Source: a virus (taxonomy: Duplodnaviria; Heunggongvirae; Uroviricota; Caudoviricetes). Taken from it: DNA of 64,000 nt. Every line of letters begins with the position of its first letter. Within the stretch, counting starts at the first letter, position 1. The notes under the pieces are model-generated. The model saw only the letters and a list, made by a program, of their open reading frames with translations. It searched no databases and was not told the origin of the DNA. Location of the stretch: the IMG/VR virus record IMGVR_UViG_2571042005_000001, positions 48,446-112,445 of that record. One strand, written 5' to 3'. A program made the position numbers and the translations under genes. Positions 8,812-60,151 of the stretch are shown here, piece after piece.

Positions 8812-9903
8812 TTAAAGTTGGCGGGAGCCGGTTCGGACGCCGTCTTTGTCGGCTTTGCCGAAACCGTAGGATTCACGGAACACCACGCGCTCGAAGCCTT
8901 TGACGATCAGCTTGTCGTATTCCACCATGGTGAGTTTCTCATCGACGTACTGTTCCAGGCCGAGGTTGGTGTCGATCAGGGCGACTTTGCCGGTGCCTTC
9001 GAGCACGCTGCCTTTGGGGGCACGTTTGGGGGTCATGCCGAGGATGCTGGGGAAAGCTCCGGTTTCACGGAAGCGGGCTCCGTCAGAGGTGGCATCAGGG
9101 TCCACCAGGTGGGCAAGGGTGAGCAGCTTGCCCAGCTCCACGCGGTCACCGGTGATCACGTTGGGTTCAGCGTCGTTGTCGTTCATCAGCAGCATCAACT
9201 GCACGAGGTCTTTGAGGTCCCAGAGGGTGGTGGCGAAAGCGGTGTTGGGGGCAGGGTTGCCGTTCTCATCACCGTTGATGCTGACTTCGAGGGCCTCATT
9301 GACTTTCTCGCGTGCACGTTTGCGGCCCACTTTGGCAAGGTACCGATTGAACAAATCCAGTCGGACATGCGCCAGAGCCTGGTAGCTCGCTTCGAGCCTC
9401 CAGGAGCGCTCTTCGAGGTTCACGCTCTTTTTGGATTGGGTGAGGACAATCACACCCTGTCCTGCCCCTTCGGTGGTGTCGCCAGCAATGGCGTCCCCTT
9501 CGATTTCATCCAAGATGCCGTAACGCACGGCGGTGCTGCTGGTGGGCACCACCACGCTCACCAAGTCATTCAAGCCCAAGAGGTGCATGCCGACCTTCTC
9601 GAATTCCCGCACGACCTGCTCGACCATCACAGGGAAGAACACCTCGTTGCCGTTGTCGCTGAAGAAAGAAGCTTCGATGTTGCCTGCAGCGGGGCCCGTG
9701 GTGATGATTCCGGCGTTGCGCAGGATTTGCGCGATCGGGCCTTTGCCGTGCTTGTCTTCCACGTCAGGGTTGTACACGTCGGTGTGGAGCTGGTTGGTTC
9801 TGGCCAGTCGCAGCATGAAAGTCAAAGGGCTGATCTTTTTGGCTTGCGCTTCGGCCAGCACGCCTTTGGCGTCTCGCAGGTCACTCAGGTTGTATTTGCT
9901 CAT
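8812..9903 (-). CDS. Major capsid protein (363 aa, HK97-like position)
   Basis: Position after protease/scaffold and decoration genes. Size and composition fit a capsid protein. Confidence 0.7.
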   Translation of the reverse strand: MSKYNLSDLRDAKGVLAEAQAKKISPLTFMLRLARTNQLHTDVYNPDVEDKHGKGPIAQILRNAGIITTGPAAGNIEASFFSDNGNEVFFPVMVEQVVREFEKVGMHLLGLNDLVSVVVPTSSTAVRYGILDEIEGDAIAGDTTEGAGQGVIVLTQSKKSVNLEERSWRLEASYQALAHVRLDLFNRYLAKVGRKRAREKVNEALEVSINGDENGNPAPNTAFATTLWDLKDLVQLMLLMNDNDAEPNVITGDRVELGKLLTLAHLVDPDATSDGARFRETGAFPSILGMTPKRAPKGSVLEGTGKVALIDTNLGLEQYVDEKLTMVEYDKLIVKGFERVVFRESYGFGKADKDGVRTGSRQL

Positions 9904-10361: not shown

Positions 10362-11861
10362 TTAAGCCTCCGTTGCCCAGTCGATGGGCTGAGTTTCGTT
10401 CTCGGTTTTGGAATTGCCAGAGGAGGGTTTGCTTTTCCGCCCGTCAGGGACAGTGGCGTCGGCTTGTTTGCGCACCAGGGCGACTTGCTTTTGCAGGTTT
10501 TCGATGCTCTGGTTTTTGAAGGCAGTGACCATCAGGTCACCTGCAGCCGGGCCATCCTGAGCGCCGTGCAGCCTGACGCACTCGGTGCGCAAATCACCCA
10601 GCAGGGCTTCCCGGTAGGCCGTGCCGTCCGCTGCGCGTGCACGCAGTTCAGTGAGGCTCTGGTCGGTGAGGCCTTCAGCGGTCTGGACCCCGAGGATCCC
10701 TGCGATGCGGGAGCGTTCCGTTGCTGCGCCCAGGGAGAGCACACCCTGGTAGACTTCGGCGTGCTCGGTGCGCAGCACTTCAGGGGTGAGGGCAGGGGCG
10801 TTTGCCGTGGTGCCGCCTGCAGTGGCGGGAGGGGTGGCTGTGGTGCTGGAGCTCCCAGCTTCAGCGGCAGTGTTTTGGGCTTCCTGGTTTTCTTGGGGCA
10901 TGGATGCCTCTCCTTTCCGGTCACGGCCTCTGGTGCCGGTTGCCGATTGAGGGATGGAGTCGAGTTCTTCACGGACGATGTCGGACAGGGTGGCAATGCG
11001 GTCAGCGAGGCCCGCATCGATGGCGGCTTGCCCTCGCCATGTGGCACCCGTGGCGAGCTTGGCGGCTTCCTCGTCGGTCATCTCTCGACCAACTGCAACG
11101 GCATGCACGAACTCGTCATGGATGGCCTGCAGTCCGCCCATCCAGTCTTCGAGGGTCGCTTCATCCATCGCTTCGAAACGCTGCCCTCGGGCTTTGCCGG
11201 GCGTGGAACGCACGTAAGTGAACTTCACGCCTGCCTGAGCTGCCGCTTCGGACTGGTCAACGTGCGTGGCGATCACCCCGATGGACCCGAGTTCCGCTCC
11301 GGGCGCCATGACCACTTCGGTGGCCTGAGAACCAATCCACAGGGCAGCGGAGTACATGCCGTCATTCACCACGGCCACCACGCGTTTCTTCTCCGCTGCT
11401 CGGGCCACGGCGCTGCCTGCAATGCCCGTGCCGGAAACTGTCCCTCCGGGACTGTCGATGTTCAAGATGATGCTGTGCACCCTCGGGTCGTCAGCGAAAG
11501 CATCGATCTGCGTGGCGAAACTGTGCGGATCCACGTAACCGCACATCTCCAACCAACCTGCCCGGGCCATCACCGGGCCAATCAAAGGCATGATCGCCAC
11601 GACTTTCCCGCCGCTGTCAGCCGAGGAACGACCTTCAGCGGTAGGGGTTTTCAGGAGCTCAGCGAGGTTGATGCCTTCGTCGGAGGCACCCACGGTGATG
11701 TTGTACTGGCGGTCTTTTCGCAGTTCAGCCAGCAAGGCCGGGTCGGCATCGATGCCTTCCATTCTTGCGGTCAGGATGGCCAGCATCGTTTCGACGCCCT
11801 GCTCGGACATCAACCAGCGCCCACGGGAAAAGTAACGGTTGATGATGCTGTCAAATTTCAT
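10362..11861 (-). CDS. Prohead protease of the S49 (SppA/ClpP-like) family fused to a scaffold-like C-terminal region (499 aa)
   Basis: Motifs DSPGGTVSGT and MAPGAELGSIGV match the S49 phage head-maturation protease core. The C-terminal half is Ala/Glu/Thr-rich and coiled. It lies directly downstream of the portal gene. Confidence 0.7.
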   Translation of the reverse strand: MKFDSIINRYFSRGRWLMSEQGVETMLAILTARMEGIDADPALLAELRKDRQYNITVGASDEGINLAELLKTPTAEGRSSADSGGKVVAIMPLIGPVMARAGWLEMCGYVDPHSFATQIDAFADDPRVHSIILNIDSPGGTVSGTGIAGSAVARAAEKKRVVAVVNDGMYSAALWIGSQATEVVMAPGAELGSIGVIATHVDQSEAAAQAGVKFTYVRSTPGKARGQRFEAMDEATLEDWMGGLQAIHDEFVHAVAVGREMTDEEAAKLATGATWRGQAAIDAGLADRIATLSDIVREELDSIPQSATGTRGRDRKGEASMPQENQEAQNTAAEAGSSSTTATPPATAGGTTANAPALTPEVLRTEHAEVYQGVLSLGAATERSRIAGILGVQTAEGLTDQSLTELRARAADGTAYREALLGDLRTECVRLHGAQDGPAAGDLMVTAFKNQSIENLQKQVALVRKQADATVPDGRKSKPSSGNSKTENETQPIDWATEA

Positions 11862-11921: not shown

Positions 11922-13393
11922 TCACTGCACCTGCCTCACCTCCTCGTAGGCGTTGCTGAGCTTGTTGAAGGCCAGCATGGAAGTCACGGCATTTTCAGGC
12001 TGCTGAGGCATGTTCGGTTGACCATCTGCGAGGTCCTCGGTGAGGTCCAAGCCGTGTTTTTGTTCGATGCGGGAACGCATGGCTTTCGGGAACTTCTCGT
12101 ACAACTTCAAGTCGGTGGCCACCTGGATGCTCTCGGTGTTCGCTTCATCCAGAGCGAAAGCGCTCGGGGCCTGCTGGAATTCCACCTGGCAGGCCACTGG
12201 GATGCCGGAGAGTTGCATGTGCAAGTTGATGCCGAATTCGAATTGCCGGGCGACCACGTTGGCGAGGTTCCACGCTTCGGACTCCACCATCGGGTACTGC
12301 ACTTTGGCGAGCGCTTCGGTGGTGGTGTCCACGCTGCCCCTCAGGAAGCCCAGGGTGCGCATCCCGGAGAACTTCAGGCGTTCCAGGGCCTTCATCACGT
12401 CAGGGTAGCCTTCTGCGCTCTTGGCGAGGTGCGTGACGTTCAATTTCGTGCCCAGAGGGGTGATCAGCAGGCCCTGCTCGGCCTGATCGATGATCAACGA
12501 GGCCATTTCGGTGTGGAAGTCCAGCACTGCCGACTGGTAATCCTCGTCGGTCAGGGGCCCTGAGTCCGGGTCGGAGTCGGCTTCCAGCTCTTGCCGGGTG
12601 GGTGTGGGCACTTCGGCATGCAAAAGCACCGCTTTGGCCATCAAACCCACCACCCGCTCAAGGCTCTGGATGGCTTTGTGGTGCATTTCGGTGGCTTGAA
12701 TGGCAGGAAGCATGAGCGGCACCCCATAAGGGCTGTCGCTGTCCGTCTGGATGGGAATGTACCTGTACGTGCGGGTGTCGAGTTGCACTTGCGGACCGAA
12801 AGCCTGCTGGAAGTACTGATAATTCCCTTCTTCATCCTGCGAGATGCGCACCGTTTCGCAGGGCACAATCGCCACGTCCTGCACGCCTTTGCGGTTCTCC
12901 AGAGGGAACCATTCGCAGCTTGACGCTCCGAAGATGGCTTCGCGGAGCTGGTTGTTGGCCAGCCCGTTCAGGCCACCGCCCACAGGGTAGATGCGCTGCG
13001 CCCACACTTTGAATTCCTGCTCGGCTTGCTTCACGGCCCTCGCTCCACCGGTGAACCGCACGGTGTGGCCGGGGTTGGCGAGGGCAATGAAATCACGGAT
13101 TGCGCCGCTCATGTCCGGGTCGAATTGCGCCAGCCAGCGCAGCAGTCGCACCAACCGGACAGCTGAATCGTTCGGGTAACCCGAGAAGGCCATGGTGCGC
13201 ATGCCTCCCATGCCGAAACTTCCGCCGAGCTCACGGGTCGGACCGCGTGAGATGCGGCCCCCTTTGAGTTTGCTGCTCACTGCGCGAACAGCTTGCGCCC
13301 GAAGGTGGGTCAGTTGACTGCGGGCTTCCGGGGTGACAGGGGGGTCCCTTTTGGGGCGACCCAACCCGAGCAGGCGTTGAAAAACATTCATTT
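11922..13393 (-). CDS. Portal protein (about 490 aa; start taken as MNVFQRLL at 13393 with RBS GGAGGTCCC)
   Basis: Size and position immediately after the large terminase. The longer 545-aa ORF in the track overlaps TerL by 170 nt, so the internal start is preferred. Confidence 0.7.
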
Positions 13394-14986
13394 TTTGGGA
13401 CCTCCAGCGTTTCTGTTCCGGGCTGCCTGCATGGACTTGAGGACGGATTTGTATGTGGTGGCAGACACAGGGTTCTGTTCTTCCTCTGGGAGCAGCAGGG
13501 CCGTGGCGGCCCAGACCAGGGCGTCCATGCGGTTGGGGGATTCCATGCCGCGAATCCAACCGGTGAGTTCCTCTTCAAGCAGCTCAAAGAAACCCACGTG
13601 TGAAACCCGGCCTTGCATGTAAGCCACAGCGATGGGCTCCGCGCGGATTTGTTTGCCTTTCGAAGCCCAAACCAAGGTGATTTTGGGGGTGCTGACGCCG
13701 ACGCTCTGGCAGTGCGCGCGCAGCACCGACGAGACCATCTCACCACCGTTGTTCTTCTCAGCGATGATTTCATTTGCCTGCCAGAACCGGTAAGCCTGCA
13801 AAGACACCACAGCCCACTCGTCCGGGCTGTAAGACCCAGTCAGGTCCTCCAGGACGTAACCGCGACCATCCGACCCGAGGGCCATCACCACAATGCCGCA
13901 CTCATCACCAGATTCGGAGGTGCTCGGGTCAAGGGCGACCACGATGCGCACCAGACGCAACGTCTTGAGGTCCACGGTGGGCGGCACCCGGTGGTCTTGA
14001 ATCCACTGCATTTGCCAGAGGGCGGATTCACTGTCGGTCGGGTCGTTCATGTACTCAATCCGGAAGGACTGGGGCGTCATGGCTTTGCGGATTTCCTCAA
14101 GGGCCTCCAAGGACCACCGGGTGGGCCACAGCAGGCTCCCATCCTCCAGGATCGCCTGGTACCTGCGGGTCACCCAACCGCCATTCTCACCTTCCGCCAG
14201 CAGGCGCATCAGCAGGCTTTTCTTGTGCAGGATCGTGCCGAGCACAATGAAGTGGTATTCTTGCGCGCCAGGCAACGGCAGCAGTGCACGCGTGAACCAA
14301 TTCCAGAGTTTCTCCCTCTGGGATGCGGTGTACACGTTCTCGTCGTTCTCAAGGTCATCGACGATGATCAAATCTGGACGCTTACCGCCTTTTTTCAGAC
14401 CACGCAACTTCTGGCGTGCCCCGACGCCCATGAAGCGAATGCCGCCCATGGTGATCACGTCCCGCACGGTTTTCTTGGTGCGTTTCTTGCGGTAATCTTT
14501 CGCTTCAGGCAACCGCAAATGCGGGTATTTCTCGGTCAGTTTCTCGTTCTCAAGCAACTCACCGTACAAATCCCCCATCAACGATTCGGCCTGCGTTGCC
14601 GTGTCAGACACCAGAATGATGAAGGCCTTCCTGAGGTGCGCCGCTTCATACAACGGCCGGCCCAGAGAATGCAGGGTGCTTTTCGCATGGCCACGCGGAG
14701 CGGCAATGCACACCCGGTTGTTCTGCAAAGCCAAACTGGCCGTCTCGAAATGGAACGCAGCAGGTTCACTCGGGAAGTGGTGCGGCAAGAACTCCTGGCA
14801 CCACCCGAGCATCTTGAAGCCATCCAGGCTGATTTTGCTGCTGGCATCCCGGGTGCTTCCGGTCAGGGAGTCAGCGATGTCCTCCAGGTATTCCATCCAC
14901 GCTGGGCGGTCACTCTGGGAGGTCAAATTCGCGGCTTGCCCACTTGCCCGTAACATTTCGGTATAGGTTGGCACGCGTAACTTCAT
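13388..14986 (-). CDS. Terminase large subunit (about 520-532 aa)
   Basis: N-terminal ATPase Walker-A-like CIAAPRGHAKST and a C-terminal RNaseH-like nuclease segment with acidic residues (VALDPSTSESGDECGIVVMA). Sits downstream of the small terminase. Confidence 0.8.
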   Translation of the reverse strand: MKLRVPTYTEMLRASGQAANLTSQSDRPAWMEYLEDIADSLTGSTRDASSKISLDGFKMLGWCQEFLPHHFPSEPAAFHFETASLALQNNRVCIAAPRGHAKSTLHSLGRPLYEAAHLRKAFIILVSDTATQAESLMGDLYGELLENEKLTEKYPHLRLPEAKDYRKKRTKKTVRDVITMGGIRFMGVGARQKLRGLKKGGKRPDLIIVDDLENDENVYTASQREKLWNWFTRALLPLPGAQEYHFIVLGTILHKKSLLMRLLAEGENGGWVTRRYQAILEDGSLLWPTRWSLEALEEIRKAMTPQSFRIEYMNDPTDSESALWQMQWIQDHRVPPTVDLKTLRLVRIVVALDPSTSESGDECGIVVMALGSDGRGYVLEDLTGSYSPDEWAVVSLQAYRFWQANEIIAEKNNGGEMVSSVLRAHCQSVGVSTPKITLVWASKGKQIRAEPIAVAYMQGRVSHVGFFELLEEELTGWIRGMESPNRMDALVWAATALLLPEEEQNPVSATTYKSVLKSMQAARNRNAGGPKK

Positions 14987-15604: not shown

Positions 15605-16645
15605 TCAGTGATCAACGCTTCTGGCTTGCTCCAGTTGACGCTTCACGCACAAGGCGATTTCTCGCATCATCAAAGGCGGCACGCTGTTCCCAACCCGAGC
15701 CCACGCCTCCTTGAACTCACCGGGGAACTGGTATTCATCCGGGAAGGAACCGAGGCGCTTCAGCTCACCGAGGTTGATCAACCTCGGGTAACGCCAGTGG
15801 TAAATGCCAGAAGCGCCATTCCCGAACACCGTTTTGCTGATCGTCAAAGCAGGCTTGTTCGGGTCGAGTTTGTGGCTGTTGAACCAGTGGCCTTTCGGGT
15901 GGGCCTCATCGAAGCCCTGGCCGGGTTTCACTTTCGCCCAGATGGACTTCCCGAACTCCGACTGGATCAAACCGGAGTCCTGGTCTTCAGGGAGACCCTC
16001 GAAAGCCTCCCGGACGGTGACCGGTCGGGTGTGCGGCACCGGAAAGACCGGCTGCAGCTTCAAGTCTTTGCGGAAACCCACGAAGATCATGCGCTCCCGG
16101 GCTTGAGGCACCCCGAGGAAACTGGCATTCAGCTTCCGGCAGGCCACTTCGTACCCGCAGGATTTCAGTTCCGTGAGGATCTCAGCAAAAACCTGCTTCA
16201 TTTTGCCTTTCACCATCCCGGCGACGTTCTCCATCACGAAAGCCCGGGGCTGCACGCCCCTCAGGAGGCGCACGAATTCCCGGAACAACTGGTTTCTCGG
16301 GTCATCAATCATGCGCTTCCCGCTGGTGCTGAAGCCCTGGCAGGGAGGACTCCCGTCGAGCACGTCCAACTCACCGACCTGCAGGCCCGTCAAACGGAAG
16401 AATTCAGGCACCGACAACTGCGCGATGTCCCCATGCCACACCTGCAAGTGAGGGTAATTCAACCGCAAAGTGTCCACGGCGTGCTGCTCCCAGTCCACCG
16501 CCAGAACTTCCTTGAAGCCCGCCATGTGGTAACCGGTGCTCGACCCGCCACCCCCAGCGAAGAAACTCGCCACGGTCGGTGCTCCTTGCGCTCTGGGGGC
16601 ATGCGCGTCCGACCAGCACTGCCTGAGGAAATCCGGGTAGGTCAT
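15605..16645 (-). CDS. DNA (cytosine-5)-methyltransferase (346 aa)
   Basis: Canonical C5-MTase motifs are visible: FAGGGG (motif I, AdoMet binding), PCQGFS (motif IV, catalytic Cys), ENV (motif VI), QARER (motif VIII) and GNSVPP (motif X). Confidence 0.9.
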   Translation of the reverse strand: MTYPDFLRQCWSDAHAPRAQGAPTVASFFAGGGGSSTGYHMAGFKEVLAVDWEQHAVDTLRLNYPHLQVWHGDIAQLSVPEFFRLTGLQVGELDVLDGSPPCQGFSTSGKRMIDDPRNQLFREFVRLLRGVQPRAFVMENVAGMVKGKMKQVFAEILTELKSCGYEVACRKLNASFLGVPQARERMIFVGFRKDLKLQPVFPVPHTRPVTVREAFEGLPEDQDSGLIQSEFGKSIWAKVKPGQGFDEAHPKGHWFNSHKLDPNKPALTISKTVFGNGASGIYHWRYPRLINLGELKRLGSFPDEYQFPGEFKEAWARVGNSVPPLMMREIALCVKRQLEQARSVDH

Positions 16646-17208
16646 GGCACGAACTCCTCACCGCAATGCGGACAGGTCACCTTCTTCACTTCCTTGGCGA
16701 TTTCTTCGGTGTACTCGGGAAATTCAGAAGGCAAGTTCTCAGCGTTGAACTTCTCGAACAGGGCATTCACTTCAATTTCAGAGAAGCCCGTCCCGAGCAG
16801 AGACCCACCATCGGCTTGCAGTTCCTGCAGCCACGTGGACAGGTTGGCTTGCACCCAACCGCCCAGTTCTACGTGCTTGTTGTCGGCAACCACGTAAGCC
16901 CGGGCGTCCACGTCGCTGGACAGGTGCACGCCACGCACCACCGGAATCAACCACTCGCCGTCCTGCTCGGCCACCCGGTCCGGTGCAGGCTGACCAGAAG
17001 CTTTCAGGGCACTCAAGGACTCCAATCGACCGTGCCCAGCGAGGATCTTGTTGGTGGTTTCATCCAGCAGGATCGGGCTGACGTACCCGAACCGCCCGAG
17101 GGACTCTTGCAGCTCGGTGATGGCGTGGTCTTTGGGGTTCCCATCCCAGGTGAGGGACAGCAGGGCCGAAAGGGGCATGTACTCAATTCGCATGGTTTGC
17201 TGTTGCAT
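16642..17208 (-). CDS. ParB-like nuclease domain protein with C-terminal Zn-ribbon (188 aa)
   Basis: ParB/Srx-fold motif KILAGHGRLESL. C-terminal CPHCGEEFVP. 4-nt overlap with the C5-MTase gene, suggesting co-translation. Confidence 0.65.
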   Translation of the reverse strand: MQQQTMRIEYMPLSALLSLTWDGNPKDHAITELQESLGRFGYVSPILLDETTNKILAGHGRLESLSALKASGQPAPDRVAEQDGEWLIPVVRGVHLSSDVDARAYVVADNKHVELGGWVQANLSTWLQELQADGGSLLGTGFSEIEVNALFEKFNAENLPSEFPEYTEEIAKEVKKVTCPHCGEEFVP

Positions 17209-17258: not shown

Positions 17259-17335
17259 TGGCGATCCGGGCAGGATTTGAACCTGCGACCCTGCGTTTTG
17301 GAGACGCACGCTCTACCAGACTGAGCTACCAGATC
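17259..17335 (-). tRNA. tRNA-Trp (anticodon CCA), 77 nt with encoded CCA
   Basis: The reverse complement folds by eye into a cloverleaf: acceptor GATCTGG/CCGGATC, D-arm GCTC-AGTCTGGTA-GAGC, anticodon stem TGCGT/ACGCA with loop CTCCAAA, T-arm GCAGG-TTCAAAT-CCTGC, discriminator G, CCA. Confidence 0.8.
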
Positions 17336-17757: not shown

Positions 17758-17970
17758 GGTGTTCTCCTGTCGGGTGCCTGTCTTGCACTCTGGGTGGGCT
17801 GAAAGGGCTTAAAGCGGAACGTGGTGCCATTTGTCGCATGGCTGCGAGATGGGGATCACCTCCTTAGCGCAGGGCGCCACATGCTGATGGTTTGGGTGCA
17901 TGGCCTGAAACGGGGTGCGGTAAGTGCATTTTCATGGTCTACCTCAGGGCCACCCGTTAGCTGTTTGTTG

Positions 17971-18396
17971 TTAAACGTCTAACGGTTCGTCTTGGAACAG
18001 TTCACTCAAATCAAAATCCGGCCGTGTCCTGCACTGGCCGGATTTCAGTGGCGCACCTTTGACAGCCAGAGCTGCTGCGCAAGCTGCAAGGGTGGCTTCC
18101 CGCTGTTGAGCTTGGGACCTCTGGGCAGGCAAAACCAGAAATTTCCTGCCGTTGGCCTCCTCCCACACCCATCCCCTCTGGCCGGTGATGTCGCAGAACA
18201 CATGCAGCATGCGCGCTGAAAGGTCAGGGTTGCAGTGCGGGTCGAGGATGCAGGCATGCAGCTCATGCAAAGGCGCAGAGAAGCGCTTGCTGAACCATGC
18301 TGCATCAGCGGTCTTGCCATTGGGCAGAGGCGTCGCTTCTATGAAATTCCGAAATGACATGCAACCTCCCAGAGCAGCCCAGGCCGGGACTCTCAC
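17971..18396 (-). CDS. Hypothetical protein (141 aa)
   Basis: Minus-strand ORF with no recognisable motif. Confidence 0.35.
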   Translation of the reverse strand: MRVPAWAALGGCMSFRNFIEATPLPNGKTADAAWFSKRFSAPLHELHACILDPHCNPDLSARMLHVFCDITGQRGWVWEEANGRKFLVLPAQRSQAQQREATLAACAAALAVKGAPLKSGQCRTRPDFDLSELFQDEPLDV

Positions 18397-18750
18397 CCGG
18401 ATCTTCCCTCACGGGACGCTTTCCTTAAGCGACCTGAACGAAAGCCCTGACCGTGAAGCCAGGGACCCGAACGGCAAACATCGAACCGGTGCGAGCAGAG
18501 CCCATCATGGATGCTTCGCACCGACTGGCTTCTCGCGCCAGACGACCCCCTTGCTGACCTTCCCTGCCCGGGTGCTTTGAGATGCCCATCCGGCAACCCT
18601 AGACCAGCAAGGACCCTCAGGAGGTGACCCCCTATCAACTGGGCCCGGAATGCCACCGGGGTGGGTGCATGCGCCACCTTGCACCTCTGGCCTGAAACCG
18701 CCACGGCGCTGGCAGGTCCACTTCGCGCTTCAAGCCTCGCGCAGCCTCGC

Positions 18751-18786
18751 ATCTGCCTGCAAACCGAAACGAAAAAGGCCTGCACA
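18751..18786 (-). terminator. Rho-independent terminator (minus strand) after gene 18851..19801
   Basis: A GGCCTGC/GCAGGCC stem with a 6-nt loop is followed on the minus strand by TTTTTCGTTTCGGTTT. Confidence 0.5.
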
Positions 18787-18850
18787 ATGGCAGGCCCTGA
18801 CAGACTTTTTGCAGCTTAAATACATTATACGGGGTTTTGCGTGTAAAAGG

Positions 18851-19801
18851 TCAATCGGGGTTTTCCTCCTGCTCCAGCAGGGCAGCAGAATCCCTCAGGA
18901 ATTGCTGCTCTGACTTCTGGTTGAAGTGCTCCACCAAAGTGGCCTGCTCCAGAGTTCCATCCTTGTGGACCAGCACGCTCACCCCTCCGGCATGCACAGC
19001 CTGATCCGGGCTGTTCCCATCAGGATCCTGATCGCCCAGCACGTCCCGCACGAAAGATCGGGCTTCTCTGGCCTTGAAGTTCCTTTCAGCCATCAATTCT
19101 CCAGGTGTGTCCCAGTGCATGGTCAAAGACAACCGCAAAGCCTCCAGTGCCTGCAGCATCCGCGGATGCTTCTTGCGGATGGCGTCACGCAGCACCAGAG
19201 CACCCCGGTCCTCTCGCCACACGAGATGCATGTCATCTTCGATGGGCCGACCATTCAGGGTGGCTTTGCTGGAAAGCCATGCAGCCAGGTCCTGCCAGGC
19301 GGCAGGGTTGTGGGGCCTGCCGGAGAGGATGTCGAGGGCTTCACCGTTCACGATCTCCAAGGGCCTCTCGGGGGTGTTGGTGTGCAGCACAATCAATTCG
19401 AAGTAAAAGCGGATCCCGTCGAGGGTCATGAAGTGCACGCCCGGCTGGTACCTTCCGGTGGCCACCTTGCGGTTCTGGTCGTATTCTTTCCTGCAGCGCA
19501 CAAACCTGCGTTCGGCATGCACGGCCTGCACGGCGAGGGCTTTGGCATCATCGAACTGGCCTCGCCACACCAGGAAACTCATTTCTTTCAGCAACCGGTG
19601 GGATTCCATGAACGCATCGATCATCTGCACACTGGAATGGTCCGCTGGCTGCTCGGGGTTCGGCAACCCCATCAAGTTCAAGTCAAAATCAGGGAGGCAA
19701 TGCCCCAACCAGATGGCTCTGGCAATGAGGTTGTGTTCCAGTTTCATGTCGGGGGTGTATTCGCGTCGGTTCATCCTCAGTGTCTCCCAGAAGAAAACCA
19801 C
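18851..19801 (-). CDS. Hypothetical protein (316 aa)
   Basis: Long clean minus-strand ORF followed by a terminator. Confidence 0.5.
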   Translation of the reverse strand: MVFFWETLRMNRREYTPDMKLEHNLIARAIWLGHCLPDFDLNLMGLPNPEQPADHSSVQMIDAFMESHRLLKEMSFLVWRGQFDDAKALAVQAVHAERRFVRCRKEYDQNRKVATGRYQPGVHFMTLDGIRFYFELIVLHTNTPERPLEIVNGEALDILSGRPHNPAAWQDLAAWLSSKATLNGRPIEDDMHLVWREDRGALVLRDAIRKKHPRMLQALEALRLSLTMHWDTPGELMAERNFKAREARSFVRDVLGDQDPDGNSPDQAVHAGGVSVLVHKDGTLEQATLVEHFNQKSEQQFLRDSAALLEQEENPD

Positions 19802-20160
19802 CCTGGGTGCTCGGGTGGCTGGTGTTGGTGTTCAGGTGTTGGGCTGTCCAGTCAAATCCGGTGTGAGGTCACGATGGGTTCAAAGCCGTCCCTTTCTGCG
19901 CTTCGAGGCGTTCGGGTGGCGCTTACGCAACCGCTCTGGCTTCCGATGAGGTGCAGGCTGAGCGTGGATTTTGAAGGGTGCTGGGGCATGCCGAATCAAG
20001 CCCATCTGCACGGAAAGGAAAAATTCCTTCAGGCTGATTCCCCTGCACGCCAGTTCCTGCTGGATGCGGTGCCTCGGGTACCCGGCGTGCTCCAGAGACC
20101 GAATCATGCTTTCGTTTCTGGCATGCTGCCGTATGAACCCATGGAGGTGGCCGTTGTGTG

Positions 20161-20400
20161 TCATCTCGTTGCCCTCTGGGAGTGACGGTTTCGCATTTCT
20201 TCTGCGAAGTCCTCCCGGTGGAGTTGCACGCCACGCCAGAAGGCGGCAACCTGCTCGGGGTGCGTGTACGGACAGTGGATGCTCCATTTGAAGCCTGAAC
20301 TGTTGGCTTTGAGGGCAAACAGGGCTTCTTCGTAACCGTGGGTTTCGGCTTTCTCCAGAGCCACCCTGACGGTTTTCTCGATTTGAAATCGGGTTTTGGG
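20161..20400 (-). CDS. Hypothetical small protein (about 80-108 aa; start uncertain)
   Basis: Minus-strand ORF. The upstream part of the track ORF overlaps its neighbour. Confidence 0.3.
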   Translation of the reverse strand, partial: PKTRFQIEKTVRVALEKAETHGYEEALFALKANSSGFKWSIHCPYTHPEQVAAFWRGVQLHREDFAEEMRNRHSQRATR

Positions 20401-20426
20401 CAAAGGGGTGTGTTGCTCTGGGTTGG

Positions 20427-21098
20427 TCATGGCCATCCACCTGGGGGCACGTCGAAGTTTTCTTTGAAGACATCGGGGTTTTGCCATGGGGGGGTGAAGT
20501 CTTGCAGTCCGGTCGGGGTGATGGTTTTGTAGCCTCGGGTCATGCCGTGCACCAGGGCGATGAGTTCGCTGCAGTCGCAGAGTTCACCTTGTGGGCCTTC
20601 GAATCTGGAGTTGAGGGGCAGGATGATGGCTTCGTCCACTTCGATCCACTGGAAGGGGGGTGGCGGGGTGGGCATGCGGTGCCATGGGCGGTCTTTGGCT
20701 GTGCGGGTCGACCAGAGCATGGGCATGCGGTACCAGAGTTGTGTGGAGAAGGTGCATTTCGCTTGGGCTTGCTCAGTGAAAGCCAAGTCGACGATGCTTT
20801 TGTCGAGTTGGTGAAAGGGTGCCAGTCGGAAGCCATTGAAGTGCAGGATGCCTTTGAGCATGCGCATCAGCGTGGCTTCCACAACGAAGTTGTCCTGTTC
20901 GCTCCACGCGTTGCTGTAACTCTGGTAGCTCTGGCTGATCAGGGGTTTGCCTGAGAGGGCAAGTTCGATGCGTGCAGTGCTGGGGTCGTTGTGGATGAAG
21001 AAGTGGTACGGTTCGAGCAGGTAATTTCGGTTCAGGGCGTCTTGCAGGTTTTGGAGGTCCTCGAAGGTCAGCAGGTTGAATTTTTGCTTCTCGGGCAT
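20427..21098 (-). CDS. Hypothetical protein (223 aa)
   Basis: Minus-strand ORF in a GT-skewed block. Confidence 0.45.
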   Translation of the reverse strand: MPEKQKFNLLTFEDLQNLQDALNRNYLLEPYHFFIHNDPSTARIELALSGKPLISQSYQSYSNAWSEQDNFVVEATLMRMLKGILHFNGFRLAPFHQLDKSIVDLAFTEQAQAKCTFSTQLWYRMPMLWSTRTAKDRPWHRMPTPPPPFQWIEVDEAIILPLNSRFEGPQGELCDCSELIALVHGMTRGYKTITPTGLQDFTPPWQNPDVFKENFDVPPGGWP

Positions 21099-21117
21099 GG
21101 TGGGTTCCTTCTGGGGC

Positions 21118-21357
21118 TCATGGGTTTTGCTTGTGTTTCTGGAGGTGCCTGTAGCCTTTGGGGGTGAGGCGGTAAAAGCAGACTTCTCGGGGTGAGTATT
21201 GGATTTTGCGTTTCAGCAGTCCATCGATGACCATTTCGCTGGCCAGCCTGCCGACCAGAGCTGGGCTGTGGCCGGTGGCTTCTGCGATGTCATGCACGGA
21301 CTGGAATGTGAAGTTGGTGGCGTGCAGGATGTGCAGGCTTTTTTTGGGTGCGCGCAT
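21118..21357 (-). CDS. Winged-helix DNA-binding protein (79 aa)
   Basis: Small basic protein with an HTH-like segment SVHDIAEATGHSPALVGRLASEM and a basic C-terminal wing. Confidence 0.45.
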   Translation of the reverse strand: MRAPKKSLHILHATNFTFQSVHDIAEATGHSPALVGRLASEMVIDGLLKRKIQYSPREVCFYRLTPKGYRHLQKHKQNP

Positions 21358-21419
21358 GGGTCTCTCTGAATGAAAGAAACCGGGTGCTTTTGGCAGCCCG
21401 GTTCTGGTGAGGTGGGGGT

Positions 21420-21959
21420 TCAGGGTTCGGTTTGCTCTGGCTGTGGCTCTGGCTGTGGGGTTTCAGCCCAACCGACTGTGAAGTGAGGTCCTTTGAATTG
21501 TGCGGCTTCTTCTTCGCCAGTGAATTCCTGCACGGTGTATCCCCAGGCGTCGAGGGATTCTTTGACGATCGGGTTCAGTTGCCCTTTGACGTACAGCATG
21601 GGGCTTGTAACCCATGGGTTTTGGGTCATGGTGATGATTTCACGCATGATGAACCCCCACTGTGCTTGCCATTCGCCAGAGGTGACGTTCTGGTGGCGTT
21701 CTCGGGCGGTTTTGGCGTCGATGATCATGGGTTCGTGCACAGTGGGGTCTCCTGCTTCGATGGCGTACTGGCGTTGTGGGTGGCGTTTTTGTTCGAGGGT
21801 GAGGATGGTTTGGGCTTGGTTGAGGTCGGTGAAGTGGTGGGCGTGCTCCCGGAAGTACCGGTGGAAGTTGTGGCTTGCGAAGTATTGCTGGTGGCCGTCT
21901 TCGAAGGTGATTTTGATGCAGTAGGTGGTGTCGGGGTGCTGGAAGTCGGTGCTGGTCAT
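21420..21959 (-). CDS. Hypothetical protein (179 aa)
   Basis: Minus-strand ORF with a 4-nt overlap to the upstream gene. Confidence 0.45.
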   Translation of the reverse strand: MTSTDFQHPDTTYCIKITFEDGHQQYFASHNFHRYFREHAHHFTDLNQAQTILTLEQKRHPQRQYAIEAGDPTVHEPMIIDAKTARERHQNVTSGEWQAQWGFIMREIITMTQNPWVTSPMLYVKGQLNPIVKESLDAWGYTVQEFTGEEEAAQFKGPHFTVGWAETPQPEPQPEQTEP

Positions 21960-22489
21960 TCGAAGATCACCTTGATCATGGGCACTTGGGTGTTGAGGTG
22001 TGCGTGGATGTAGTGGATGCTTCCTGCGGGCTCGGTGCTCTTGAACCAGTACAGGTCGCCTGCAATGAAGGTGGCGTGCTGTTCGAGGGTGTGGACGTGG
22101 GGGGCGAGCAGGGTGTCCCAGAGGGCTTGGGGGAGGGTGAGGGTGACGCCTGAGGGTTCGCTTTCTTCACCGAAGGTTTTTTCGGTGTGGTGGGTGTGGG
22201 TGAGGGTGATGTAGGGGGTCCAGTTTGGGGCGAACTGGGAGAGTTTGCGGTCGAGGAAGATGTATGGGCGGGAGGTTTCGGGGTGTTTTTGGGTGTGGAG
22301 TTTGAGCATGTGCTCCAGGGCGTACTGGAGTTGCTCGGGGTTGAGGGGCAGGTCGGTGTTTTTGTGGGCTTCTCCGATGGTGAAGGCGATGTGCTCTCGG
22401 GTGAAGGGTTTGAAGGGGGTGTGGCGGTGGGTGCCGTGCAGTCCGTCTGTGTAGAGGGTGTGGTAGTAGGTGGTGTGTTGTGTTTTCAT
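21956..22489 (-). CDS. Hypothetical His/Thr-rich protein (about 177 aa; start taken as MKTQHTTYY at 22489 with RBS GGAGACAAC)
   Basis: First gene behind the consensus promoter at 22539-22570. The track's upstream ATG at 22543 lies inside the -10 element and is discounted. Confidence 0.5.
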   Translation of the reverse strand: MKTQHTTYYHTLYTDGLHGTHRHTPFKPFTREHIAFTIGEAHKNTDLPLNPEQLQYALEHMLKLHTQKHPETSRPYIFLDRKLSQFAPNWTPYITLTHTHHTEKTFGEESEPSGVTLTLPQALWDTLLAPHVHTLEQHATFIAGDLYWFKSTEPAGSIHYIHAHLNTQVPMIKVIFE

Positions 22490-22538
22490 GTTGTCTCCTG
22501 TGCGCGTTTGCTTCCCGGCTGTGCGCGTTCTTATGTCA

Positions 22539-22570
22539 TTCATTGTATATCATTCAGATATACTTGTCAA
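22539..22570 (-). promoter_or_regulatory. Perfect-consensus sigma70-type promoter (minus strand) TTGACA-N17-TACAAT with a palindromic operator (GTATATC...GATATAC) in the spacer
   Basis: Read on the minus strand: ttgacaAGTATATCTGAATGATAtacaat. A near-identical copy sits at 63479-63510. The adjacent inverted repeat TGACATTTGATGTCA at 22602-22616 may be a second operator. Confidence 0.6.
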
Positions 22571-22642
22571 CGCTTAAACCGCTCTGGGAAGGCAAAAAAT
22601 CAAATTGTTAAACAGAAAACATCAAACAAATGACATTTGATG

Positions 22643-23251
22643 TCACACCAAAAACGTGATGTCTGGAGTCCTCGAAGGTGGCGCATCCAGCAAACGAAGC
22701 ACGCTGGTCCCGCTGTAAGAGAACCCCAACCGGGTCCGGTCATCCGGACCCACCACGTGACCCACCGAATGCAGCCAGAGCAGCTTCCCAGTGAACAAAA
22801 CCGGATGGGCCTTCAGAAGGTCCCGGCCTGGCCACAGCAGGTTCTTCAGCATCGGCGCAGGCACATGCAAATCAAAGCCCGAGAACTTCAGCTCAGGGCA
22901 CACCTGAGGGTTCCGGCAGTAAAAGAGCTGCGCCCTCACCTCATCCGACCATGTGGGCGGCAGGCGAATGAAAAAATCATCCAGATCCACGCACTCCACC
23001 CCCTCCGGCGTCACGGTGGTGCCCCAAGCCAACAGGTATTCCGCGGTGGCCACCGCCTGCCCAGCGGTCAGTTCGCCCCGGTAAGCCTCTGGCGTGCAAC
23101 CCAGACCGTACACAAACCCTTCCAAGGTGAACGGCTTGTAGAACCGCCCACGGTCAAACTGCTCCCGGGAATCCCTCAACCCCCTCTGGAAGATCTCAGC
23201 GAGCAGATTCGAATGGAGCGGGGTGTATTGACTGTTTTGGGGGTTTTTCAT
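22643..23251 (-). CDS. Hypothetical protein (202 aa)
   Basis: Minus-strand ORF. Confidence 0.45.
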   Translation of the reverse strand: MKNPQNSQYTPLHSNLLAEIFQRGLRDSREQFDRGRFYKPFTLEGFVYGLGCTPEAYRGELTAGQAVATAEYLLAWGTTVTPEGVECVDLDDFFIRLPPTWSDEVRAQLFYCRNPQVCPELKFSGFDLHVPAPMLKNLLWPGRDLLKAHPVLFTGKLLWLHSVGHVVGPDDRTRLGFSYSGTSVLRLLDAPPSRTPDITFLV

Positions 23252-37399: not shown

Positions 37400-38248
37400 C
37401 TACGTCCGCTTTCTGCAAGGCCCTGGCCCCCTGAGGGTCTCCGCGTACAGACCGCACAACTCCTTGCGGTTCAACTCCGCGAGCTTCGCACGGGTCTGCA
37501 ACTCAATGCCCGGCATGGACCACCAGCCCCCGTAATACCCGGCCTTCCGGAAAGCCATGATCTGATCGATCATGCTCTGGGCAGTCACCTCCGGGAAAGG
37601 ATCCGGGGCTTCAGGTTCAGGCGCAGGCTTGCTGGGCGTGGGCTTGGAGGGCTCCACGGCGGCAATCAAAGCCTGCACTTCATCCACTGGTTTTCCCTGC
37701 CAGGCCCCCTGCACCCGGTTGATCACCTGATCGAGCACCATGTGCAACTCTGGCTTCTTGTGCGGACTGTTCGGCACCCGCCAAGCGCCTTGCGCCCCAC
37801 CGATCGGAATGGGAGGGTCAATGGCCGTGAATTGCCCGAGACGCCAACCGTTCGACCCGAAGTACCACGGGTCATCATGATCCTCAGGGGCACCGGTGAT
37901 CACCTCCTCGATGATGGCCACCGCATAAATGCCTTGCTTCACGAACCTGAGGACCTCTGAAGGGTCCGTGAAATCCGGCATGGCCGCTGGTTGCATGCCG
38001 ACAATGCCCAGGCAGATCTGCTTCAATTCCTCGCCGAGCCTGAGTGCAGCCTGCTCACCTGACGGGCCTCTGCCGCCATGAAGGGCGATGGTGTCACCGA
38101 CCTTCAAACCCAGCCTCTGGGGTGGGTACTCGCGGTTCTCGACGCGTTTCTTTGGGAAGCCACCCCCGAAGTCGTGCAGCATCATCGCTGGCCACGGCTG
38201 CAGGAGCGTCAAAGCCCGCAAATTCTCAAAATCATAAGGGGGCATCAA
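37400..38248 (-). CDS. ASCH-domain (PUA-like) protein (282 aa)
   Basis: N-terminus LTLLQPWPAMMLHDFGGGFPKKRVENR...GDTIALHGG matches the ASCH hallmark (QPWA...G.K..E.R). The C-terminal half is uncharacterised. Confidence 0.55.
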   Translation of the reverse strand: MMPPYDFENLRALTLLQPWPAMMLHDFGGGFPKKRVENREYPPQRLGLKVGDTIALHGGRGPSGEQAALRLGEELKQICLGIVGMQPAAMPDFTDPSEVLRFVKQGIYAVAIIEEVITGAPEDHDDPWYFGSNGWRLGQFTAIDPPIPIGGAQGAWRVPNSPHKKPELHMVLDQVINRVQGAWQGKPVDEVQALIAAVEPSKPTPSKPAPEPEAPDPFPEVTAQSMIDQIMAFRKAGYYGGWWSMPGIELQTRAKLAELNRKELCGLYAETLRGPGPCRKRT

Positions 38249-38898
38249 CGGTCATCCTCCGGTGGCAAGTAACTTTTGATCTGGTGCTCCAGGAAGTGCT
38301 TGGCTTCTTCGAAACGCGTGTGAGGCAAATCGCGGTATGAAGCCAGCCCGAAATGCTCCTTGAAAAGCCGCCAGGCTTTCGAATAACCCATGTGCTTCCC
38401 GAGGGCCTGCCCAAGTGCATGGATGACTTTCACTTGCCCAGCGCTGATCGGCGCGGTTTTCTTCCAGCCTTCCAGTTCAGAGATTCGCTGGTCATGCTGG
38501 GTGAGTTGCTTTTCGTGCTGCACAAGCTGCTGCGCGGACTCCAGCAGCATTTCCGCTGGGGTCTTCAAGGCAGGGACAGCAACCCTTCGATTCCGGGCAT
38601 CTCCGAACGCCTGCACCAACTTCACTTTCAGGGCCACAGACAAATCGTTGTTGCGCACCAGCGTCAGCAGAAAGTACACCTGGTCTTCGTTCAGCAAAGC
38701 GAACTTCGGGGGTCTCCCACGGCCTTCCTTTTCTGCGATTTCAAATCGGAATAAACCAAAGCCTTTCATTTCATCCTCGTAATCGCTCAGCAAACTGAGG
38801 ATGCTTTCATGCTGGTTCCCGAGTTGCGCAGCCACCAACCGGGAGTCGACTCGGGGTTCTTCATTCAAGTAATTCAAGGTGAGGGGGGCATCGGTCAT
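38245..38898 (-). CDS. Phage regulatory protein Rha / antirepressor-like (217 aa)
   Basis: N-terminal VDSRLVAAQLGNQHESILSLL matches the Rha family signature. The C-terminal domain is of a KilA-C/ORF6C type (helical). Confidence 0.6.
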   Translation of the reverse strand: MTDAPLTLNYLNEEPRVDSRLVAAQLGNQHESILSLLSDYEDEMKGFGLFRFEIAEKEGRGRPPKFALLNEDQVYFLLTLVRNNDLSVALKVKLVQAFGDARNRRVAVPALKTPAEMLLESAQQLVQHEKQLTQHDQRISELEGWKKTAPISAGQVKVIHALGQALGKHMGYSKAWRLFKEHFGLASYRDLPHTRFEEAKHFLEHQIKSYLPPEDDR

Positions 38899-42892: not shown

Positions 42893-43172
42893 TCAGTTTT
42901 CGATGACCCGTTCAAGGTTGTTCGGCTCGAACGCCCCAGCGGTCATCCATGGGAGGTTGTTTTCCTGTGCGTACTTTTCAACATCCGGCTGGAAGGACGG
43001 GAAGTGCACCCAGACCTTTCCGGAGATCTGGGCTTGCGTGGCGTTGGGCTCCACCACCAAGCCCACCTCTCGGGTCACACAGAGGTTGTCGTATGGACTG
43101 CTCGGCGCATGGAACCTGCCCACGTAACGCACTTTGATGCCTGGAGGGAAATCACTCGGGTTTTTTTTCATG
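42893..43172 (-). CDS. Hypothetical small protein (about 93 aa; start MKKNPSDF)
   Basis: Minus-strand ORF overlapping the PAPS-reductase gene start by about 20 nt. Confidence 0.3.
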
Positions 43173-43988
43173 GGTGCGCTGCCCCTCCTGAGAGCAGCCA
43201 TCGATGTGAATGCCAGTGATTTCTGGCAGGGACCTTCGGGACTGGTGCATGGTGTAACCGGTTTTTTGTTCCAATTCGACGTACCGCTGGTACAACTCTG
43301 GATTCCTGACGGCACCGTTCCGCAGGTCGTTGCTGTTCGCCAGAATGCAAAAAACGCAACTCAGGCGGTCATTCCCGAGGCCGTAAGCAGGGTGGAGTTC
43401 CTGCCCTGCCTCCCGGATGGCCTCGAACACTTGGTCACGGTTGAAGTGGTGGATGGGCAGCCAGTCGAACCATGCACGGCTCTGGGTGGTGTTGGTTTCA
43501 TTTTTCCGCCATGTAATGGCTTTTGCGCGCCTCGGGCTTTCCTCAGCTCGGAGGCCCACGCAGTTGATGATGGTTTGAAAGCCGTGCTCTTTGGCGTACC
43601 GCCTGACTTCCCGTTCAATGGGGCCTCGCTTCAGGTCGGAGGTGCACTGTCGGTGCTGCGCGCTCGGCCAGCTCGGCACGTCCGGCCTGCTGTCAAACCG
43701 CGCTTCCACCATGCCCAGCAGGGTCTTGTTGGCACGGGCCACCACGAAAGGCAACCCTGCGTTTCTGGCTTGCTGCTCGGCGTGCTCCAAAGCTCCGGGC
43801 CATTCCATTTCCCCGAGGGAGGCGTGAACGACCAGCATTTGTGCTGCAGGACTGATTTTCAGGAGTTCGATCAGCATGGCCTGGCTGTCTTTTCCGCCAC
43901 TGTGGTTCGAGACGATCAATGCCCCTGCGCGGATGAGGTCTTGGACTTCATCGGGTGGCCACTGGGTTTCAAACAGCGGGTTTTGCAT
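43152..43988 (-). CDS. Phosphoadenosine-phosphosulfate (PAPS) reductase-family PP-loop ATP-pyrophosphatase (278 aa)
   Basis: PP-loop motif SGGKDS near the N-terminus (LIVSNHSGGKDSQAML). Size fits phage-associated PAPS-reductase/DndC-like proteins. Confidence 0.7.
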   Translation of the reverse strand: MQNPLFETQWPPDEVQDLIRAGALIVSNHSGGKDSQAMLIELLKISPAAQMLVVHASLGEMEWPGALEHAEQQARNAGLPFVVARANKTLLGMVEARFDSRPDVPSWPSAQHRQCTSDLKRGPIEREVRRYAKEHGFQTIINCVGLRAEESPRRAKAITWRKNETNTTQSRAWFDWLPIHHFNRDQVFEAIREAGQELHPAYGLGNDRLSCVFCILANSNDLRNGAVRNPELYQRYVELEQKTGYTMHQSRRSLPEITGIHIDGCSQEGQRTHEKKPE

Positions 43989-48817: not shown

Positions 48818-49050
48818 TTGGGCTCCTTGGTGTGGGTCAAGTTCTGCAGGTGGGTGTTGATCTGCTCGCCGAGCGTTTGGTGGGCGAGCCGGTCAAGCAC
48901 GTCAATCTGGCCACTGCGCAACACATCACCGTGGCGTTTCAAAAGATCCTGCAGGCCATCCATCATTTGCTTTCTGGAGATGCGCCCGAGGGAATGCTGG
49001 ACGTTCAATTTGCGGTATTCACTCTGGATTTTTTGTGTGGGTTTCACCAT
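48814..49050 (-). CDS. Hypothetical protein (78 aa)
   Basis: Minus-strand ORF with a 4-nt overlap. Confidence 0.3.
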   Translation of the reverse strand: MVKPTQKIQSEYRKLNVQHSLGRISRKQMMDGLQDLLKRHGDVLRSGQIDVLDRLAHQTLGEQINTHLQNLTHTKEPK

Positions 49051-50075
49051 GCGGTCACCTCTGGGAAGCTGTGGTGGGTGACCCCATCAAGGTCACGTCC
49101 GGCTTTTCGTGTGCCTGCCCGGGCCAGCACCAGCAGGGGGTAGGTTTTGGTTTCTGGCCTGCCGTCTCTGGCGAGGGTGCCGTCTGCGTTCATCAGCACA
49201 TCGCCGCGTTTTTTGTTCATGTGGCGTTTCGCTCCATCGATGTATTGGATGGGGTCACAGAACTGGTGGATGGGGATGAATTCACCCCACTGCTTGAAGT
49301 GGAAGGGGGTGTTCGCTTCCTGGCAGTCGTCGCGGATCTGCCGGGCCCAGTCGGGGTGCATGGGTCGGGCGTTCTTGCCGGATTCCCCGCCGACAATCAC
49401 CCAATGGATGCCGTCCGGGTGGAGGTGGCCTTTGAGGTCCACGGGCCCGAGGAGGGGTTCGCAACTCAAGAAGCGCACCTGCGCTGGAATGCTGGTGAGG
49501 ACCGGGATGCGCTGGGTGGCTTGCTGTTGGTCTTCTGCGGTGGTGCCCAGCCAGATGTTCGGCCCGAGGAAGTCTTTCGGGTCATCAAAGCCTCGAGCGA
49601 TGCTGTCGAAGGCTGTGTCTGGGTCTTCGAGGCCTGGGAGGGCTTCTGCGATGCTCTGGCGTCTGCCGGGGGTGAGGAGGTAGTCTTTCATGCGCTCAGG
49701 TCTTTTGGTGAGCAGCAGGAACCGGTGGGCTGCATCGTAAGGGCTTGAGGCGAGGATCATGCTGGCAAACACCCGGTCCAGAAAGGCGTCAGGGACAAGT
49801 GGATGGAAAAGGTCGGACATGCTGCCCACGAAGATTCGTGCAGGTGTTTTGCTGCGGAATTTCAGGGGGTCAATCAGCCTTGATGGGTGGAGTTGGATGC
49901 TGCCAAACGGTTGCCGGTACTGCTCAGGGAGGCGCTTCCCGGCGTGCAGCGCGTCATGCCTCTGGTCGTGCAGGGTTTTGGCGTAGCAGTTCTTGCAGCC
50001 CGCAGTGATTTGAGTGCAGCCAGAGGTGGGATTCCAGGTGTGGGTTGCCCAGGTGATGCTGGTTTTGTTGATCAT
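49044..50075 (-). CDS. Phage Gp37/Gp68 family protein (DUF5131) (343 aa)
   Basis: N-terminal hallmark ITWATHTWNPTSGCTQITAGCKNCYA (compare family consensus WNP.TGC....GC.NCYA). Confidence 0.7.
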   Translation of the reverse strand: MINKTSITWATHTWNPTSGCTQITAGCKNCYAKTLHDQRHDALHAGKRLPEQYRQPFGSIQLHPSRLIDPLKFRSKTPARIFVGSMSDLFHPLVPDAFLDRVFASMILASSPYDAAHRFLLLTKRPERMKDYLLTPGRRQSIAEALPGLEDPDTAFDSIARGFDDPKDFLGPNIWLGTTAEDQQQATQRIPVLTSIPAQVRFLSCEPLLGPVDLKGHLHPDGIHWVIVGGESGKNARPMHPDWARQIRDDCQEANTPFHFKQWGEFIPIHQFCDPIQYIDGAKRHMNKKRGDVLMNADGTLARDGRPETKTYPLLVLARAGTRKAGRDLDGVTHHSFPEVTAW

Positions 50076-57258: not shown

Positions 57259-57333
57259 TGGAGGTCAGGGCAGGAATCGAACCTGCAATCTGCCCTTTAC
57301 GAAAGGGCTGCTCTGCCATTGAGCCACCTGACC
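57259..57333 (-). tRNA. tRNA-Thr (anticodon CGT), 75 nt with encoded CCA
   Basis: The reverse complement gives a cloverleaf by eye: acceptor GGTCAGG/CCTGACC, D-arm GCTC-AATGGCA-GAGC, anticodon stem GCCCT/AGGGC with loop TTCGTAA, T-arm GCAGG-TTCGATT-CCTGC, discriminator T, CCA. Confidence 0.8.
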
Positions 57334-60149: not shown

Positions 60150-60151
60150 GG

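Follow-up and report, generated by a model that had tools for sequence, protein, structure and literature searches.

Two strong-looking promoters that lie about 41 kb apart in a phage of Deinococcus enclose the same palindrome, and the question is which protein, if any, uses that palindrome to control both. The window, which is the whole stretch of 64,000 nucleotides (64 kb) analysed here, contains the two promoters, PL1 and PL2, each at the head of a short block of leftward genes. Our reading, to which we assign a probability of roughly one half, is that a dimeric repressor, most likely an autoregulated 76-aa HTH protein, blocks RNA polymerase at both leftward promoters. We infer promoter firing, palindrome binding, the identity of the binder and the order of affinities from the layout of the sites. 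The system is ordinary phage gene control, with a repressor, an operator and a promoter of known type. The regulation of Deinococcus prophages is essentially uncharted and the host is poorly studied.

The phage and its duplicated promoter element

The 76-aa HTH protein is 100% identical to an NCBI entry, 'transcriptional regulator', of Deinococcus misasensis, so we take the window to come from that species, and it is part of a D. misasensis prophage. The same phage is found on contigs from three public sequencing runs, and a DNA similarity search of the window against known phages gave no match. The GC content is ~0.58. A codon-usage gene call places almost all window genes leftward, and the public calls for contigs with the identical sequence agree with it. 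Rfam finds two tRNAs in the window and nothing else. The landmarks are as follows.

8812-9903, major head protein
10362-11861, S49 prohead protease
11922-13391, portal
13388-14986, large terminase
17259-17335, minus strand, tRNA-Trp(CCA)
38245-38898, Rha/Ant-like regulator
57259-57333, minus strand, tRNA-Thr(CGT)
several sites in the window, methyltransferases and a NinI-like phosphatase

Just upstream of the terminase genes lie genes for a ParB-like nuclease-domain protein (16642-17208) and a C5 cytosine methyltransferase (15605-16645). A DUF5131 protein is encoded at 49044-50075 and a PAPS-reductase-like protein at 43152-43988.

An earlier note on this DNA had pointed to two near-identical 32-bp elements about 41 kb apart. 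The copies are indeed identical at 30 of 32 positions and differ at exactly the two positions that it quoted; its coordinates are right for the first copy but off by one for the second, which runs from 63480 to 63511 and not from 63479 to 63510. The element is 25% GC. The search for further copies that the note had proposed, run on the 64-kb window, returned only these two at up to 3 mismatches, with 0 further copies expected by chance. Around them, a repeat search detected no larger duplication, the element being the only good repeat that the two places share. Tandem related prophages were considered as the source of the duplication and rejected, as nothing else is repeated between both loci.

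On the minus strand, both copies read TTGACA-N17-TACAAT, as the note had stated. The pattern TTGACA-N15-19-TAYAAT has only 2 matches in the 64-kb window, PL1 and PL2, against 0.02 expected, and an independent consensus scan gives each of them 11/12 with a 17-bp spacer. PL1 and PL2 are predicted to fire as strong sigma-70-type (housekeeping-sigma) promoters. Each copy lies directly upstream of leftward genes, and the gene starts at 22489 and 63411 are the same in the codon-usage and the public calls, in keeping with what had been claimed. The two promoters and their operons are laid out as follows.

22539-22570, minus strand, 32-bp element with PL1 promoter-operator: -35 TTGACA at 22565-22570, -10 TACAAT at 22542-22547, predicted start ~22535
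18851-22489, minus strand, PL1 operon: proteins of 177, 179, 79 (winged-helix), 223, ~90 and ~310 aa
21118-21357, minus strand, third PL1 gene: 79-aa winged-helix protein with a weak MarR_2 match (E 1e-4)
18775-18798, minus strand, terminator-like hairpin and T run of the PL1 operon
63480-63511, minus strand, 32-bp element with PL2 promoter-operator: -35 TTGACA at 63506-63511, -10 TACAAT at 63483-63488, predicted start ~63476
61661-63411, minus strand, PL2 operon: proteins of 171, 73 (Cys-rich), 96, 142 and 106 aa, all ORFans
61632-61654, minus strand, strong terminator-like hairpin of the PL2 operon: 9 pairs, 8 of them G-C, then TTTT

The leaders are ~46 nt (PL1) and ~65 nt (PL2) long, and both have Shine-Dalgarno sites. 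The PL1 leader also contains an exact 11-nt direct repeat, AACGCGCACAG (minus strand), at 22498-22508 and 22519-22529, 21 nt apart, that could serve translational or other control.

The sequence does not support the description of the two units as early operons. Each is a short ORFan cassette, one of 1.8 kb and one of up to 3.7 kb, that ends at a predicted intrinsic terminator, and the PL1 operon has the early region on one side and the packaging genes on the other. Pfam, PHROGs and PADLOC suggest no function for the operon proteins, with the exception of the weak MarR-type match of the 79-aa protein. The PL1 operon proteins have no homologues outside the phage lineage, and the first gene of each operon has none beyond near-identical copies, nor are these two genes related to one another. 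Judged from these comparisons, both units look like short accessory cassettes of lineage-specific ORFans. Tight repression behind consensus promoters would mark both as candidates for host takeover, exclusion or anti-defence. About 800 nt at 17960-18775, from the PL1 terminator to the next gene, are without a confident gene call.

A second palindrome had been reported beside PL1. It is real, a single copy of TGACATTTGATGTCA at 22631-22645, but it lies outside the interval that the note had assigned to the unit, is upstream of the promoter in the sense of transcription (~60 bp from the PL1 -35), and does not stand out statistically. It shares bases with the stop codon of the upstream gene and can take part in an AU-rich hairpin with a U tract behind it. 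Either weak insulating termination or the binding of another protein may be its role. Directly upstream of PL1, the segment 22586-25724 departs from the rest of the phage in its GC and AT skew, which are reversed, and in its low codon-usage scores. Contigs from the matching run break at 22585 and, by calculation, at ~24348, and a relative, L005, diverges at 23231. The segment is possibly a variable or foreign insert.

Three putative operators and a divergent regulator gene

The note had described inverted half-sites GTATATC...GATATAC in the promoter spacer; they are perfect at PL1 and have one mismatch at PL2 (GTACATC). In both promoters, the 19-bp palindrome fills the spacer between -35 and -10 and overlaps the first three bases of the -10. 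What the note had missed is a site next to PL2, Ob, which would be a third, weaker operator and lies in the spacer of a rightward promoter, PR. The sites and the gene that PR serves are as follows.

22545-22563, operator O1: GTATATC-ATTCA-GATATAC, a perfect 14/14, spanning ~-28 to -10 of PL1
63486-63504, operator Oa: GTACATC-ATTCC-GATATAC, 13/14, in the PL2 spacer
63507-63525, operator Ob: GTCAATC-TCTCG-GATATAC, 12/14, in the PR spacer
63505-63533, plus strand, PR promoter: TTGTCA (63505-63510)-N17-TATCAT (63528-63533)
63540-63770, plus strand, 76-aa XRE/Cro-C1-type HTH protein, the proposed repressor

With mismatches allowed, the window has 3 sites of this 7-5-7 form against 0.04 expected, and the heptamer GATATAC occurs 4 times in 64 kb against 0.12 expected, each time at O1, Oa or Ob. 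A literature search for the heptamers turned up primer sequences only. The layout, with three sites and a heptamer confined to them, lends support to the idea, already put forward in the note, that PL1 and PL2 are co-regulated through an embedded palindromic operator.

The consensus scan picked out PR separately, at 10/12 and with a 17-bp spacer, and the -35 hexamers of PR and PL2 overlap almost base for base. Oa and Ob are 21 bp apart from centre to centre, that is, two helical turns, which puts the two on one face of the helix. Between the end of the PR -10 and the ATG at 63540 there are 6 nt. In D. radiodurans, leaderless genes have a TANNNT -10 about 6-7 bp before the start codon (PMC12340547), and leaderless mRNAs, which lack a Shine-Dalgarno site, are abundant in Deinococcus (PMC12340547; PMC4007540). 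The PR mRNA is predicted to be leaderless, its gap between -10 and ATG fitting the Deinococcus layout.

From this arrangement we propose the following circuit. A dimeric repressor bound to the dyad, from about -28 to -10, would occlude RNA polymerase at PL1 and PL2, and the likeliest repressor would be the XRE-type HTH protein of 76 aa whose gene adjoins PL2 and is read in the opposite direction. It is the best and most economical candidate, and its own divergent promoter carries the third operator. The gradient of matches, from O1 (14/14) through Oa (13/14) to Ob (12/14), would make repression tightest at PL1 and next at PL2, with the repressor's own gene last. The protein would then regulate itself negatively through the weakest site, Ob, in PR. 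Because the -35 hexamers overlap, PL2 and PR would be mutually exclusive for polymerase, and the two leftward cassettes would be switched by one repressor. Such a circuit is compact, comprising a repressor gene that is leaderless and autoregulated, its three graded operators and the two strong promoters; the promoters would be useful as genetic parts in Deinococcus.

A plainer account does away with a dedicated regulator and supposes a duplicated strong promoter in which the palindrome is incidental. It can draw on scans of viral contigs with the bare 14-base palindrome and two shuffled control palindromes, in which almost all of the matches listed lie outside promoters and target and controls behave alike; for the palindrome itself, 1 of the 114 matches listed is in a promoter context, and in viral contigs it is there mostly by chance. 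The account does not sit well with a third copy of the palindrome in the promoter of the neighbouring regulator, where there is no promoter similarity, nor with the position of all four heptamers in 64 kb at these sites. Furthermore, an 11/12 consensus promoter left unrepressed in a prophage would be unusual, and a comparison of the copies, and of the window with the relative L015, shows half-sites that are kept around centres that vary. We regard an incidental palindrome as very improbable.

L015 is the most diverged of the contigs that carry the phage, with 92.6% identity over 7 kb, and has 5 substitutions in the 64-bp control region. Three change the five-base centres of the operators Oa and Ob, one a variable position of the PR -10 (TATCAT to TATGAT) and one the stretch between that -10 and the ATG. 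All 28 half-site positions and both -35 hexamers are unchanged, as is the length of the 6-nt gap. The direction of this pattern fits a dyad contacted by protein; with only five changes, the chance that all of them avoid the half-sites is ~0.06.

The assignment of the 76-aa protein to the XRE type draws on weak similarities. HTH_3 matches it at E 0.006 and 17 bits, against a Pfam cut-off of 23, and there is a weak HTH_31 match as well; the matches to PHROG repressor families are also weak (E 0.005-0.012). The best match among solved structures is a POU-specific domain at E 0.59. A single-sequence structure model is poor (pLDDT 64), and the Foldseek matches obtained with it are meaningless. Among 5.8 billion proteins, no homologue was found beyond close phage relatives.

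Just past the HTH gene, at 63774-63993, are five direct repeats of GAGACCTTTTTGTGTGGTT with 0-1 mismatch and spacings of 32-78 bp. These repeats are iteron-like; they could serve as an origin or in partition, or the 76-aa HTH protein could have its true target here. Two assemblies from different samples both end at 63996, a position that could mark a repeat or the genome end.

Recurrence of the promoter-operator and the candidate binders

The note had named as repressor either a CI-like protein or the small HTH protein. The second part of this proposal is the one that we retain, with the start codon at 63540; the CI-like protein belongs to a separate switch with other repeats, as follows.

58694-59284, plus strand, CI-like gene: HTH_3 match at E 1.7e-5
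58180-58509, minus strand, Cro-like gene, facing the CI-like gene
58510-58693, spacer between the two: AT-rich, ~50% GC, with its own promoters (TTGACT-18-TACAAT)
58562-58577 and 58608-58623, inverted pair of the motif GGKYACACTTTTTG(AT), with a further copy at 60150-60165

The CI-like protein is the only full-length repressor-like protein in the window, and the HTH_3 match is at its N-terminus. Its own divergent region (58510-58693), however, contains another inverted repeat, GGKYACACTTTTTG, which recurs a third time at 60150, and neither GTATATC nor GATATAC. Control of the two promoters by this protein has, in our view, hardly any likelihood. The main lysis-lysogeny switch is probably the one at 58.5 kb, and a different protein would run it. 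Positions 59846 and 59938 are listed with this switch, and the -10 of the Cro-like gene, TACAAT, lies 9 nt before its ATG, which implies a nearly leaderless mRNA.

A second candidate lies within the PL1 operon itself, whose winged-helix gene could bind the operators in place of the HTH protein. The 79-aa product would then autoregulate PL1 and repress PL2 and the HTH promoter in trans. The MarR_2 match of this protein at E 1e-4 is consistent with such a role, and the scans described below contain two metagenomic operons (L037 and L053) that have the identical promoter-operator and open with a PadR-family winged-helix gene; in most other contexts, too, the regulator is encoded inside the operon that it controls. 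A profile comparison between the 79-aa protein and the PadR proteins of L037 and L053 nevertheless gives a probability of 10%, with only the wing motif aligned. The proposal also reduces the third operator, in the HTH promoter, to mere cross-regulation and leaves the HTH protein without a target. We consider the 79-aa protein a rather unlikely repressor.

The contexts in which the same design occurs elsewhere bear on the binder in another way. The scan pattern was TTGACA-N-GTATATC-N5-GATRTAC. In a collection with one genome per species (185,579 genomes), it has 9 matches, against ~2 expected by our own estimate with equal base frequencies. Six of the 9 precede operons of a brnT toxin and a CopG-type antitoxin, with PF04365 and PF12441 confirmed on examples; a RelB-like/ParE pair and a TacA/GNAT pair follow one match each. 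Metagenomes contain 33 matches, as follows.

14 of 33, brnT operons
3 and 3 of 33, two phage groups
2 of 33, PadR-led operons with a second tandem operator
2 of 33, operons led by an RHH gene
2 of 33, a divergent RHH gene with extra operator-like copies
2 of 33, IS1-like transposase genes
1 of 33, a divergent small Cro/C1-like HTH gene (L032), arranged as in the window
4 of 33, context unclear

The brnT and CopG operons (L007-L011, L014, L029 and others; Magasanikbacteria and Uhrbacteria of the candidate phyla radiation, Verrucomicrobiota and Kiritimatiellales) have a conserved promoter in common, with the operator between -35 and -10. At these brnT loci 6-8 nt separate the -10 from the ATG, implying leaderless toxin-antitoxin transcripts.

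In IMG/VR, 13 fragments of one phage group of 45-46% GC (L016-L028) have the form TTG(C/A)(A/C)A-N-GTATATCAAAATGAT(G/A)TACAAT. The core is found past the tail genes, at the head of a series of small genes that it drives, among them one for an RHH protein weakly similar to PF12441. An alignment of these phages with the Deinococcus copies has only the promoter-operator core in common, the flanks being unrelated, and no protein is common to the window and the other loci that bear the cassette.

Since several families of repressor use the design, the operator sequence does not name its binder. That the same operator is found elsewhere mostly with RHH or PadR regulators, and not with XRE proteins, counts against the HTH model. 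It suggests a further candidate, an RHH protein from outside the window, such as a host antitoxin of the BrnA/CopG type, that would bind the sites and whose degradation would free the cassettes. The cassettes would in that case be part of a host toxin-antitoxin regulon. The exact promoter-operator heads 20 operons of brnT and a CopG antitoxin (6 in the genome scan and 14 in the metagenome scan) as well as TacA, RelB-like and other RHH-gene operons, and in the separate phage group the driven operon includes the RHH protein with a weak PF12441 match. On the other hand, custom HMMs find neither BrnT nor a PF12441-like RHH protein in the six-frame ORFs of the window. No Deinococcus is among the exact matches in the 185,579 species genomes, a collection that did not return the two sites of the window either and so is without this region. 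Moreover, regulators other than RHH proteins also accompany the operator, so that no protein family can be read from its sequence. An RHH protein supplied from outside strikes us as quite improbable, and the 76-aa HTH protein is kept as the proposed repressor.

The wider reach of the design is the most interesting lead that remains. The recurrence across lineages may reflect the spread of a cassette or convergence. Convergence is possible because the last bases of the dyad are fixed as TAC, the start of the -10, which leaves 4 free positions per half-site. The suggestion in the note of a mobile regulatory cassette agrees with the recurrence of the core in unrelated operons and phages, but transfer and convergence are indistinguishable here. 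It is conceivable, though doubtful, that a 29-bp unit (TTGACA, 1 base and GTATATC-N5-GATATAC overlapping a TACNNT -10) is portable or repeatedly re-invented among toxin-antitoxin modules, PadR operons, IS elements and phages of several phyla and, in this phage, wires two unrelated ORFan cassettes to one repressor, maybe of the host antitoxin type. If such a plug-in did respond to a host antitoxin-type repressor, the release of phage genes would be coupled to toxin-antitoxin activation. Toxin-antitoxin operons are autoregulated, and the presence of the promoter-operator before autoregulated operons elsewhere fits a repressor-binding role of the palindrome. A modest question of general interest follows from finding one promoter-operator in distant lineages beside RHH, PadR and HTH regulators, namely, whether cassettes are exchanged or arise by convergence.

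Relation to known systems

The note had likened the two promoters to lambdoid PL and PR, which are divergent early promoters on either side of the repressor gene that drive the N-side and cro-side operons. The analogy is loose at best, as both promoters point leftward, lie 41 kb apart and coexist with a separate CI/Cro pair. By analogy of layout, the PL2/PR pair with its graded operators resembles lambda OR more than it does PL/PR. As in OR of lambda, 434 and P22, an HTH repressor would be encoded divergently from a promoter on the lytic side, and graded palindromic operators overlap the promoters. Likewise, the repressor gene would be negatively autoregulated via the weakest site and have a leaderless mRNA; the lambda cI mRNA from PRM is leaderless. 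The differences are several. The divergent pair has two operators here, not three, with a remote third site 41 kb off; the -35 hexamers overlap back to back, and the half-sites are in a 7-5-7 arrangement. In contrast to the lambdoid case, the window has a separate CI/Cro-like switch (58.5 kb), and the promoters serve short ORFan cassettes instead of the main early operons. The 76-aa protein itself is without sequence homology to lambdoid repressors.

Within Deinococcus, the XRE-family repressor DdrO acts on a palindrome, the RDRM, that overlaps promoters at several unlinked loci. The RDRM is another motif, of 17 bp, and was rejected as an explanation for the window sites, whose half-sites do not fit it by eye. 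Neither does the 76-aa protein have the C-terminal domain of DdrO, and no IrrE-like protease is among the window proteins scanned.

The closest likeness in the promoter itself is with the brnT/CopG operons (PF04365 and PF12441), which have the identical TTGACA, one base and GTATATC-N5-GATATAC, the final TAC starting the -10. The spacer position of the operator, common to both, is the one expected if repression works by occlusion. The window, in contrast, has no toxin, antitoxin or RHH protein of the brnT/CopG type, and the ORFans immediately downstream are of 171-179 aa. The brnT/CopG transcripts look leaderless, whereas those of PL1 and PL2 have leaders, and the -10 is TACNNT there and TACAAT in the window.

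The L016-L028 phages share with the window a nearly identical core between unrelated flanks, and no protein. One copy is seen per fragment in these phages, and the operon that it heads holds the RHH-like protein.
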